DNA of 64,000 nucleotides from Eledone cirrhosa (lineage: Eukaryota), in contig OZ024756.1 in the NCBI GenBank assembly GCA_964016885.1, forward strand, positions 28,396,001 to 28,460,000, given 5' to 3'. Within the stretch, counting starts at the first letter, position 1. Each line of letters starts with the position of its first letter. The notes under the pieces were generated by a model, which saw nothing but the letters and a program-made list of their open reading frames with translations, was not told where the DNA came from and did no database searches. The translations under genes and the position numbers were made by a program. Below are positions 407 to 17,806 of the stretch, piece by piece.

Positions 407-521
407 CAGCCAACATCTTCCAATTGTGTTTTCCATTAGAGTTTAATTCCAAACAGATTTGGCAGAGAACTTTTGAATTCAACTCAAGAACAGACATTTT
501 TTCAATGTCGACTACTTTGCC
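407..521 (-). CDS. Coding exon 8: [38 protein letters not shown] - helices 1-2 of a Death domain; gene continues beyond the window
   Basis: TATTTCCAG acceptor, GCT G|GTAAGT donor. L-x-x-x-L-N...N-W-K-x-L-A is the Death-domain helix-2 signature (dWrxLA). Confidence 0.82.
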
Positions 522-15500: not shown

Positions 15501-17806
15501 AAGAACTTCATAACTGAATCCAAATTTGCCTCCACTAGATCGCTTCAATATCACAGTCTTTGTTTTGGCATCCCACTGGATGCTGTCTGGGTTGCGGAAG
15601 ACAGCATCTTTCAACGAGACGGTATCGGCGGCTATCGGTCTTGGCATTGGTTGAGAGTGACAACTACTGTCAGCATCCAGCAATAGTGAGTTCATGCTGT
15701 TTGTACTGCTACTGTTGCTATTGCTACTGCTCACACTGGAGTTCAAACTCATCCGTTGGATATCGTCATTGGAGTCATGGCACAGGGATCGATAGGCTTC
15801 TAAAAGGACAACAGTGCCGGACGACCGACTCAAGACGCTCTCCACCTCCATCGGCGTCTTCAAGTGGCGGATGTCAGTCTCATCTATTTTGGTGATATAG
15901 TGGTACTTGGTCAACTCTCGCGACAAACATGTGTCCTTCACCTGAGTCACCTTTGCAATATTCCCACTCGGACATTTCTGAAAGTAAGAGAAAAAAAAAA
16001 GAGATAAAAAATTTCAAATGTAGTCACCGTTAATGCAAATGACTATAAATAATAGTTGCTAAAAATCAGGCAAAGTACCCCTGTCGATGGAAAAAAGTTT
16101 GTCTCTGGATTATGCTAATAGGGTAGAGAAAGTTTATAAGTCTTCTTGTATTTAATACTTATATGACTGTATTTCAAGTGAAGTACACTCTATTTTAATT
16201 AATTAATGAAGAATTTTGAGGGGTTTGCTAAAATTATTAATTATTTCATTACTTAGGGCGGTGGATTGGCAGTTTAGGTAGGGTGTTGGACACCCTGCTT
16301 CGCAGAATAGAGTTACAACCCTTTACATTCTGAGTTCAAATCCCACTAAGGTTAGCTTAGCCTTTCATCCTTGCAGGGTCGATAAAATAAAGTACCAGTC
16401 ATGCACTGGGGTCAATTTAACAGACTTTCCCCTCCCACAAAATTGCTGGCCTTGTGCCTAAATCAGAAACCATTATTATTATTTCATCACTTAACATATG
16501 GTTCTTGTATAAAATTATGTTGGAAGATTTTAATTTAACCCTCTTAACATTGAAACTGGACGTATCCGGCCAGAATTCTCTCATCTCTTTCTGTTCAAAC
16601 CAGCCATAACTGGCTGCTCATTCTTATGTTAAGGTATTGTATTGTTCTCAAAATAAATAATATCAAAATCTCATAGATTCAATATTATGTGAGATAATTA
16701 TGTGAGGTAAAGCCTTTACCATGAAAATAATATAGTAAATATAGAGTAATTTAAATGTTAAAGGGTTGAATAAAACCCTTTAAAATGGGTGGCTTTGTTT
16801 CAAACAACCAGAGCTGGTTTTCACTGGGTTGGTATCAAAAGGTTTAAAGTACTATATGGCTTTGCAAACTTCCTGCCATGACAGAGATGTGACGACACAT
16901 ACGACCTGATGGATAGGAAATGTGTAACTACGGACATCCTTGTGATTAGGTGGGTGATGTATTCTTTGAATAGGAAGTGATGGCCTTCCTTGGACTCAAG
17001 TTGACAGCCATCATATATGGACAAAGGTGTACAGAAAGATGAGGAGCAGGATTTAAGAATGAGGGAGAGGAAGTATTGAAAGAAAACCAAACTTTTCTGA
17101 GACTTCTAAGGACTAAATGTTGCGGACTTGGGTCTATCAAAAGTTCCACAAGACTTTGTGTTTAACCATTATTACATCTACAGAGATTAATTGTTGGTAG
17201 TGATGTGGTGTTGATTCATTTGTTGTGTGTGTGCTCTCTTGTAGCTTGCTGTGTTGATCCTTACTTTACTGTACTTTACCGTTCATGCACATTAGCATTA
17301 CGAATCCAACGAAGAATGCTCACTTCACTTCACCTTTTAACCCTTTAGTATTTATATTACTTTATATACTATAGAATTTTTGTAGTAAAGGCTTTACCTT
17401 ACATAATTATCTCACATAATATCGAATCTATGAGATTTTGATGTTATTTATTTTGAGAACAATACCTTAACATCAGTATGAATGGCCAGTTACAATCAGT
17501 TTGAACAGAAAGATGTTAGAGAATTATGGCCGGATATGGCCGGTTTAAATGCTAGAGGGTTAAGCCTCAGCATATTGTCTGCATTCAAAATCCATGTCTC
17601 ACTGCCACACAACGCCACACTTCTCATGCAGATATCATAAAATCTACCTTTCATTTCGACAAAAAAAACAAAAAAACAACAACACTTACTTGAATAATTA
17701 TACTGAAACCTAGTTTACCATCAGCTCTTCGTGGGACAGGAATTCTGCATGGTTTACCACAATCTATATCCTCTTCGAGCCTAAAAAACGGTTCATCTTC
17801 TGCCAT
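407..17806 (-). CDS. Spliced gene (3'-incomplete): PDZ-PDZ-degenerate Roc-COR-Death-domain protein; join(17690-17806,15492-15977,13538-13570,12653-12754,9145-10048,6529-7072,4712-4928,407-521)
   Basis: All eight exons have AG acceptors after pyrimidine tracts and GTAAGT/GTGAGT/GTACGT donors. Intron phases (0,0,0,0,1,2,0, then 1 at 407) give one stop-free frame of 2518 nt. Domain motifs run continuously across junctions. Confidence 0.88.
1300..1596. repeat. Fold-back element (~120-bp arms) embedded in (TA)n
   Basis: 1300-1419 is the near-perfect reverse complement of 1477-1595. Remnant TGAAGA..CGAAAATATTC motif. Confidence 0.9.
1627..4231. repeat. 2.6-kb (TA)n/TAAA compound microsatellite in intron 7
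   Basis: Almost pure A/T tract. Confidence 0.98.
4232..4585. repeat. Fold-back element (~125-bp arms) plus unpaired tail, with a variant hammerhead-like motif
   Basis: Arms ~4232-4358/4398-4515. CTT-TTGAAAA-GCAG..CTGT-GAAA-C(C/A)GG-TA-AAG. Confidence 0.8.
4712..4928 (-). CDS. Coding exon 7: end of COR-like region with Cys/His-rich segment
   Basis: CCTTCTAG acceptor (phase 2), CTC|GTACGT donor (phase 0). Overlaps ORF 4682..4975. Confidence 0.8.
6529..7072 (-). CDS. Coding exon 6: COR-like domain
   Basis: Phase 1/2; a second in-frame acceptor lies at 7063. [40 protein letters not shown] and [14 protein letters not shown] follow the order of COR motifs (ILDPQWL, GIL, LLxxFD, YFVPSLL, FFxRL). 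Confidence 0.86.
7405..7610. repeat. Fold-back element plus tail (same family at 56872-57062; related at ~51978-52125)
   Basis: Arms ~7405-7460/7465-7521, then tail TTACCCACTCTACTACCCTAAGTATT shared between copies. Flanked by (TA)n. Confidence 0.85.
8140..8340 (+). mobile_element. Helitron-like non-autonomous 5' end
   Basis: (TA)n-AACTGAGGATGTCTGTCTGT(GT)n..AAAACTCGAGAACCACCCAACCGA..AAACTTTACACA layout. Confidence 0.45.
9145..10048 (-). CDS. Coding exon 5: end of PDZ2 (ELRLIIQRP), degenerate Roc-like domain, start of COR-like region
   Basis: 904-nt open exon (ORF 8951..9985). TTTCTAG acceptor, GGA A|GTAAGT donor. [28 protein letters not shown] and [11 protein letters not shown] match the Roc strand/helix pattern. 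Confidence 0.88.
10455..11490 (-). mobile_element. 5'-truncated RTE LINE (subfamily A), frameshifted, in intron 4 of the host gene
   Basis: YADD motif ([14 protein letters not shown]), PHD-like Cys cluster, FRYLGD and [10 protein letters not shown]. Frameshift in the G/C run at ~11013-11025. Stop codon runs directly into the (ATG)n tail. Confidence 0.9.
12653..12754 (-). CDS. Coding exon 4: PDZ2 core [34 protein letters not shown]
   Basis: Canonical PDZ motif L-x-x-GD-x-I-x-x-(V/L)NG. TTTTGCAG acceptor, GCG|GTGAGT donor. Confidence 0.92.
12892..12975 (+). mobile_element. Mariner-type TIR fragment
   Basis: TACGAGGGTCGGCTGAAAAGTTCATAGGCTGACCAA. Confidence 0.5.
13538..13570 (-). CDS. Coding exon 3: 33-nt microexon [11 protein letters not shown] inside PDZ2
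   Basis: TTTTTTTCAG acceptor, ATG|GTGAGT donor, phase 0/0, open frame. Confidence 0.72.
14287..14331 (+). ncRNA. Minimal type I hammerhead ribozyme motif in a Penelope-pLTR-like repeat (~14040-14490; relatives at ~590-890, ~42960-43150, ~61520-61810)
   Basis: Stem I AGTCA/TGACT, core CTGAAGA, stem II GTCACA/TGTGAC, GAAA, minimal stem III, cleavage triplet CUA. Confidence 0.8.
15492..15977 (-). CDS. Coding exon 2: rest of PDZ1, Ser-rich linker, start of PDZ2 ([12 protein letters not shown])
   Basis: CTTTCAG acceptor, ACA|GTAAGT donor, 486 nt, phase 0/0. Overlaps ORF 15453..15950. Confidence 0.9.
17341..17559. mobile_element. piggyBac-like MITE (other copies 16539-16765, 43643-43986 with an internal triplication, ~46030-46446 interrupted by a SINE)
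   Basis: TTAA on both sides; TIRs CCCTTTAG(C/T)ATTTA...TAAATGCTA(A/G)AGGG. Confidence 0.82.
17690..17806 (-). CDS. Coding exon 1: [39 protein letters not shown] (start of PDZ1)
   Basis: ATG at 17806 has an in-frame TGA three codons upstream. TTTCAG acceptor puts the exon start at 17837 (short 5'UTR). Donor CAA|GTAAGT. Contains an R-x-x-x-K-LGF carboxylate-binding loop. Not in the ORF track. Confidence 0.88.

Follow-up and report, generated by a model that had tools for sequence, protein, structure and literature searches.

A stretch of 64,000 nucleotides from Eledone cirrhosa (contig OZ024756.1, positions 28,396,001 to 28,460,000 of the forward strand; hereafter the window) carries on its minus strand, between positions 17806 and 407, a gene whose product almost certainly has the domain architecture PDZ-PDZ-Roc-COR-Death, with a Roc domain that is predicted to be a pseudo-GTPase. 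The gene is best described as encoding a probable Roco-derived pseudo-GTPase adaptor and should be filed neither as a working Roco protein nor as DAPK1. An earlier note on this DNA had proposed this layout, lacking kinase, leucine-rich repeat (LRR) and ankyrin modules, and profile and structure comparisons upheld it.

The gene is real. Joining and translating the eight phase-compatible GT-AG exons proposed in that note reproduced its stop-free frame of about 839 codons: the minus-strand chain comprises 2518 nucleotides (839 codons, zero stops), its splice sites are canonical (AG acceptors 7/7 internal, GT donors 8/8), the start phases of exons 1-8 are 0,0,0,0,0,1,2,0, and the join contains every signature peptide ([26 protein letters not shown] as well as NWKMLA). 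One more exon was found beyond the window edge, where the remainder of the gene had been expected; exon 9 (28395440-28395229 of the same contig, 966 nucleotides beyond exon 8) completes the death domain and terminates with TAA. The choice of exon 6 acceptor sets the length of the full nine-exon protein at 906 residues (7063) or 909 residues (7072); both acceptors are in frame, and 7063 agrees slightly better with the orthologs (alignment score 3738 versus 3726). End to end, this model is 79.5% identical to the O. vulgaris protein, 79.8% to that of O. bimaculoides, 68.5% to that of Argonauta and 37% to a Logan protein, and the end-to-end alignment with the Octopus proteins indicates that the exon join is not due to chance. 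Support for the exon junctions comes from the models of orthologs and from contigs of relatives that lack introns, not from reads of E. cirrhosa. Contigs of 3.5-4.4 kb, too short to hold introns, encode complete relatives of 976-1328 residues and thus support the join indirectly; one 993-residue sequence occurs on 104 contigs. The exon 5 sequence has a single match in this genome (7 candidates scored). Orthologs of the gene are already modelled as 'uncharacterized' (for example, 'uncharacterized protein LOC115221472') in three Octopus species and Argonauta.

Domains of the encoded protein

The middle of the protein is predicted to be a Roc-COR module by three routes, namely profile comparison, Atlas features and predicted structure. 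For the last of these, an AlphaFold model was made of the O. vulgaris ortholog (79% identical) from 34 family rows with no active Roco in the alignment (mean predicted local distance difference test score (pLDDT) 68.7, predicted template-modelling score (pTM) 0.51), a single-sequence model being useless (pLDDT 32.5). In a Foldseek search with the ortholog model, the rows listed at ranks 1-24 were all Roco proteins, the best being C. tepidum 6hlu (E 4.6e-13). A wide structure search of 48,161 chains placed Roco proteins in the top six positions (Z 15.8-14.4), followed by Pelle/Tube (Z 12.5) and MyD88 (12.4), both at residues 802-905, and by an isolated COR domain (11.8). VIA structure alignments matched model residues 283-784 to LRRK2 8fo9 (Z 17.0, root-mean-square deviation (rmsd) 5.5, 416 residues) and residues 281-774 to C. 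tepidum Roco (Z 16.0, rmsd 5.9, 392 residues). Across these comparisons, residues 283-785 match C. tepidum Roco, LRRK2 and LRRK1 at Z 14-17.

The profile comparisons centred on Lingula XP_013378594.1 (P0025), a protein with Pfam Roc, COR-A and Death domains. Against it, the family profile gave 99.8% over 535 columns, and the middle of the family compared with P0025 minus its death domain gave 98.8% (E 1.1e-16, score 133.6), a score to be set beside a maximum of 24.2 in 30 shuffles and 16.8 for the PDZ region as a negative control. Structure (Z 14-17) and profile (98.8%) both indicated a Roc domain, with its Ras-like G-domain fold, directly followed by COR, and the C-terminal half of COR, COR-B, is present in the profile as well as in the predicted structure. 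In the Atlas features, ortholog residues 280-800 shared 177-182 features with Roc/COR clusters, at a value of 0.91. The whole Lingula member of the family gave 0.82, and a cluster named DAPK1 came up for this member at 0.80; both were treated only as leads.

Profile libraries recovered the flanking domains and not the middle: Pfam PDZ is present in 16/16 full-length members and Pfam Death in 14/16, whereas Pfam Roc (PF08477) and COR-A (PF16095) matched 0/16 at E up to 10. The locus is likewise absent among the 57 Roc and 2 COR-A Pfam matches in this genome, and a Pfam scan of single exons found weak PDZ matches in exon 4 and no Roc, COR or Death. When searched against PDB sequences, a two-sequence profile returned weak PDZ and death matches only, and a 20-sequence profile returned no Roco among the 60 matches listed. 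An NCBIfam scan gave PDZ-protease side matches only, and in a whole-protein word search for homologs the family was crowded out by multi-PDZ proteins.

Both PDZ domains show a basic-xxx-G-phi-G-phi loop (R/K-xxx-G-phi-G-phi; RRADGKLGF and [10 protein letters not shown]), the PDZ carboxylate loop motif, and the PDZ folds of the ortholog model (residues 19-112 and 169-271) match PDZ structures at Z 10.6-11.8. Profile comparison of PDZ1 with PDZ2 gave 98.5% (E 2.8e-15), and an N-terminal PxxIxW extension is common to both, its PDZ1 copy being lost in octopods; read simply, the sequences suggest that the pair arose by internal duplication. In the ortholog model, the two domains are separated by a low-confidence Ser-rich linker.

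At the C terminus, after COR, residues 802-905 of the model form a death domain that superimposes on Pelle/Tube over 94 aligned residues (rmsd 2.8), and FADD lies within about 1 Z unit of the top death-domain structure rows. By sequence, the best matches of the death domain among those listed for the 20-sequence profile were p75NTR (E 2e-16), MyD88 (3e-12) and NRADD (1e-10), then UNC5B. Identity with MyD88 was rejected, no TIR match being found in the 16 members, though the source of the Mactra member labels it MyD88.

Degenerate nucleotide-binding motifs and known relatives

Roc domains carry motifs G1-G5 and are most strongly conserved around DxxG, according to the accessible portion of a review (PMC6337361). 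Of the 34 rows in our motif alignment, 33 cover Roc (the remaining row is a C-terminal fragment), and the G1, G3 and G4 positions are degenerate in all 33. The G1 P-loop GxxxxGK[ST] was found in 0/20 family proteins and is present in the active control P0025; at its site the window protein reads RVFLCGPAA, the first strand of Roc ending in G, with two or three residues before the helix begins ([11 protein letters not shown] in the window; scallop has RVFLCGSEARA). The G3 (switch II) DxxG, which is DYAG in P0025, is of the ELLASSD type, as in the window, or the ELFVISD type in 33/33 covering rows, and G4 (T-H/K-x-D type) is replaced by sequences of the KCICQD, YGLLHN and CGLLDS types at the column pairing with GTHRD of P0025. 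Because G1, G3 and G4 have been lost, the protein is not a working Roco GTPase, and this identity was rejected; the Roc domain is a predicted pseudo-GTPase that, judging from its sequence, is very unlikely to bind GTP. The original reading of the protein as a Roco stands for the predicted fold and order of Roc-COR but not for the GTPase motifs.

The pseudo-Roc has nevertheless been maintained by selection, to judge from its identity of 76% to that of O. vulgaris, compared with 77% for COR-A, 79% for COR-B, 71% for Death and 84-94% for the PDZ domains. Among conserved 12-residue windows (19 non-redundant rows), second and third place go to the beta1 strand and to the FFHHC helix that follows switch II. 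In active Rocos there is contact between the switch II region and COR, as stated in the part of the review available to us (PMC6337361), and this contact, together with the conserved helix, suggests that the Roc-COR interface is the part that seems to have been retained.

DAPK1, a member of Roco group 3, shares with the family a Roc-COR module followed by a C-terminal death domain and has no LRR (PMC6337361, accessible text). It differs in having a kinase and ankyrin repeats, whereas the family has two PDZ domains and has lost G1, G3 and G4; the two are set apart by their domains, not by direct sequence comparison. GTP binding reportedly regulates DAPK1, to go by the title of a cited study. 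No kinase or ankyrin Pfam match was found in the 16 members, the N-terminal 270 residues of the ortholog model form two PDZ domains, and classification as a DAPK1 ortholog was rejected for want of both modules.

The predicted Roc, COR-A and COR-B fold is shared with Chlorobium tepidum Roco, Methanosarcina Roco2, human LRRK1 and the Parkinson's protein LRRK2, also human (290-420 aligned residues, Z 14-17), but identity to these solved proteins is 8-12%, and the family lacks LRR, kinase and nucleotide motifs and has PDZ and Death domains added. The closest active relative found is Lingula XP_013378594.1, a kinase-less Roc-COR-Death protein that is collinear with the family from Roc beta4 through COR to the death domain. 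Unlike the family, it keeps GKERQGKT, DYAG and GTHRD, has no PDZ domain and contains a hydrophobic insert inside Roc. The insert, at residues about 130-410 between the P-loop and switch II, has five segments above 1.8 on the Kyte-Doolittle scale, and the protein is possibly a membrane-spanning Roco. In the E. cirrhosa genome itself, an LRR-Roc-COR frame at C7, 85.08 Mb, has GAVKAGKT, DFGG and GTHAD, and with a Death exon at C7:85077031-85077258 it forms a candidate active LRR-Roc-COR-Death gene. For other death-domain proteins, this genome gave 7 matches. MyD88, Tube and FADD resemble the family in that a receptor-binding module is coupled to a death domain with this fold (Z 11.4-12.5); in the family, by contrast, a PDZ pair replaces TIR or DED as the input module and is separated from the death domain by a 500-residue pseudo-Roc-COR.

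Exons and other features of the window

The window has a G+C content of 33%, in a source genome of 3.0 Gb, and all exons of the gene lie on the minus strand. Exon 1 (17690..17806, residues 1-39), with its start ATG at 17806, encodes the first half of PDZ1, including the carboxylate-binding loop [11 protein letters not shown], and exon 2 (15492..15977, residues 40-201) encodes the remainder of PDZ1, the Ser-rich linker, the PxxIxW extension and the start of PDZ2 (GKFGFSY). Exon 3 (13538..13570) is a 33-nucleotide microexon for residues 202-212 in the PDZ2 loop, and the same 11 residues are found in the Octopus orthologs. The PDZ2 core, [12 protein letters not shown], is contributed by exon 4 (12653..12754, residues 213-246), with Pfam matches below the cut-off (PDZ_6 E 0.0015, PDZ E 0.0054). 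Exon 5 (9145..10048, residues 247-547) contains the end of PDZ2, the entire pseudo-Roc (about 9946-9335) and the start of COR-A; exon 6 (6529..7063 with the preferred acceptor) contains the remainder of COR-A and most of COR-B, matching the 3dpt COR domain at Z 11.8; and exon 7 (4712..4928) contains the end of COR-B and a Cys-rich tail that is of low confidence in the model. The first part of the death domain (NWKMLA) is encoded by exon 8 (407..521), Pfam Death being detected at E 3e-06 in the Argonauta ortholog.

Two cysteines in the Cys-rich tail (4712-4822) are conserved in 16/19 and 15/19 rows and may form a zinc site. In the start region (17806-17816, minus strand), out-of-frame ATGs lie at 17811 and 17816, 5 and 10 nucleotides upstream of the ATG at 17806; the orthologs begin with MGMAE, so that the first Met is frameshifted here, through either a real one-base loss or an assembly error. 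Intron 4 holds a broken retrotransposon remnant (10468-11618, minus strand; RVT_1 E 3.3e-07 and a PHD-like finger), and about 2.6 kb of near-pure TA microsatellite (1630-4250) makes up most of intron 7, which separates COR-B from the death domain. Elsewhere in the window, a GIY-YIG endonuclease fragment (48732-49049, plus strand; Pfam E 1.8e-06) and a frame resembling it that has no Pfam match (54425-55060, minus strand) presumably belong to Penelope-type elements, and a tandem array at 44774-45294 consists of 10.9 copies of a 48-nucleotide unit (91% matches) with one frame open per strand.

Family, proposed role and significance

Members of the family were found in cephalopods, bivalves, gastropods, a brachiopod and starfish, that is, in three phyla, so that the search of molluscs and other lophotrochozoans suggested by the earlier note was productive, the family is an old one and an octopus-specific gene could be rejected. 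A two-sequence profile searched against 1.84 billion representatives gave 32 matches, of which 24 were Pfam-scanned and 23 looked up by name, and a search with the middle region gave 11 matches, 5 of them new. The reach of these searches was limited, and the member list is one of named matches (Argopecten, Mactra, Mya, Dreissena, Sinanodonta, Potamilus, Haliotis, Aplysia, Biomphalaria, Lingula, Asterias, Acanthaster and Patiria) that makes no statement on vertebrates, arthropods or nematodes. Identity between classes is about 17-22%. In a quick tree (24 rows, the fragments and near-duplicates of the 34-row alignment omitted; one active Roco as the sole outgroup; the careful search unfinished), the window protein groups with those of Octopus and Argonauta, and cephalopods, bivalves and starfish each come out as a group, whereas Haliotis has a long branch and is unplaced. 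The tree roughly follows the species, which fits vertical descent of one gene without proving a single origin.

On balance, we favour with modest confidence a nucleotide-independent adaptor in which the PDZ pair, the motif-less Roc-COR and the death domain together hold the death domain beside membrane proteins. A hydropathy scan predicted no transmembrane segment in the ortholog; the adaptor would be soluble, and its PDZ pair would bind the C-terminal tails of receptors or junction proteins. Roc-COR would be kept as a rigid spacer, probably dimerising by way of COR-B in the manner of C. tepidum Roco; COR mediates Roco dimers, according to the accessible parts of two articles (PMC6337361, PMC4104024). 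Clustering on the membrane might seed death-domain assembly with a partner of the MyD88/IRAK/Tube type or the p75/FADD type and, as there is no nucleotide switch, would replace GTP as the input. The interpretation in the earlier note is partly supported: the architecture holds, and the scaffold role with its link to apoptosis or MyD88/IRAK immunity, put forward on the basis of the layout, is an inference.

Several results weigh against the adaptor reading or the assignment beneath it. Pfam finds no PDZ1 in exon 1 or exon 2 of the window, and PDZ1 is missing in three starfish rows (Asterias, Acanthaster), in the Biomphalaria row and in one bivalve-like row. The structural model is that of a 79%-identical ortholog with a pTM of 0.51, and its alignments with Roco structures have rmsd values of 4.5-7.2. 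When the profile was compared with P0025 by part, COR-A gave 95% and COR-B 86%, and the Roc part alone was weak at 43% (E 2.4e-4); the cephalopod sequences alone reached only 1.3% against P0025, and the family profile reached 5.9% against a second active Roco, the LRR-Roc-COR protein of this genome. The death domain singles out no pathway, its fold favouring Pelle/Tube and MyD88 and its sequence p75NTR. Finally, two hemichordate proteins (P0010 and P0018) are PDZ-PDZ-Death and a Mytilus protein (P0026) is PDZ-Death, all with the same PDZ type and no Roc-COR, which means that the module may not be central to the link from PDZ to death domain; these proteins may be short isoforms, mis-models or real deletions.

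Four other explanations were weighed. The protein could be a pseudoenzyme regulator that is tethered by its PDZ domains, pairs through COR with a GTP-binding LRR-Roc-COR-Death protein and sets the state of that partner. The LRR-Roc-COR frame of this genome, its P-loop intact, is followed some 5 kb downstream by a Death-domain exon of the same strand, COR-B matches the other domains in conservation, and COR is the dimerising part of Roco proteins (PMC6337361 and PMC4104024, as far as accessible), but the weak profile similarity to this paralog (5.9%) and the status of the Death exon as only a candidate part of its gene make such a partnership unlikely in our view. Also unlikely is a scaffold role at junctions, in polarity or in neurons, in which the death domain would act in the cytoskeleton or guidance, as in p75NTR, NRADD and UNC5, and not in immunity. 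The sequence ranking of the death domain, with p75NTR ahead of MyD88 and with NRADD and UNC5B among the best matches, argues for it, and the one genome match and species-like tree fit a conserved role better than an expanding family of immune receptors; against this, the top death-domain rows by fold are Pelle/Tube and MyD88 (with FADD within about 1 Z unit), the family evolves fast, as its 17-22% identity between classes attests, and TIR and Death domains are frequent fusion partners of Roc-COR proteins in molluscs (PMC9334734, accessible text).

We consider it improbable that the Roc-like domain has stayed a sensor, with a remodelled pocket that takes a metal, a non-canonical nucleotide or a peptide as its ligand. 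Ortholog positions around the former nucleotide site are conserved (R290 in 18/19 rows, G295 in 19/19, C294 in 14/19, H380 in 16/19 and C382 in 17/19), but core or Roc-COR interface is another reading of these residues, a P-loop would be about three residues longer than the loop that follows G295 and would have the Lys and Ser/Thr missing there, and the position of the DxxG Asp is hydrophobic. That the exon join is an artefact, or the gene a pseudogene in E. cirrhosa, has next to no probability: the out-of-frame first Met of the orthologs, with ATGs at 17811 and 17816 ahead of the in-frame one, speaks for it, but 906-909 stop-free codons with end-to-end orthologs and the relatives encoded whole on contigs too small for introns, including the 993-residue one on 104 contigs, speak against it.

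The earlier note knew of no characterised Roco with the PDZ-PDZ-Roc-COR-Death layout, and full-text literature searches found no paper on it (among the titles listed and in the papers cited here; subscription papers, including the original Roco surveys, lay outside the search). Three Roco groups are listed in a review in whose accessible text 'PDZ' is absent (PMC6337361). About forty domain combinations are reported in a survey of animal Rocos, and 'PDZ' does not occur in its available text, figure excluded (PMC11378527); as far as that text goes, its proteins were collected with the Pfam Roc profile, which means that the family escapes it. Rocos of Trichoplax have CARD and death domains and, in the portion available, no PDZ (PMC4104024). 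Aplysia TIR-Roc-COR proteins have been described in an article whose main text, as available, leaves the Aplysia member unmentioned, with just a row in an orthogroup table (PMC9334734), and the accessible parts of PMC11463336, PMC8195603 and PMC5094078 do not describe the family.

Whether Roc-COR acts as a GTP switch, as a device for dimerisation or as both is still a matter of debate for LRRK2 and the bacterial proteins that model it (PMC6337361, accessible text). That Roc-COR is kept across molluscs, brachiopods and echinoderms despite the loss of its motifs points to a GTP-independent job for the module, for which this family offers a test protein, and a candidate death-domain adaptor missed by domain-based surveys is added to the signalling of these animals. 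More tentatively, and with more doubt than confidence on our part, the family may represent a single ancient pseudo-GTPase Roco lineage, of at least bilaterian age, that made the switch of LRRK2 and DAPK1 into a permanent scaffold and serves an unrecognised PDZ-triggered death-domain pathway in marine invertebrates. If so, this lineage would be a natural experiment on Roc-COR without GTP, in a pathway invisible to Pfam-based surveys.

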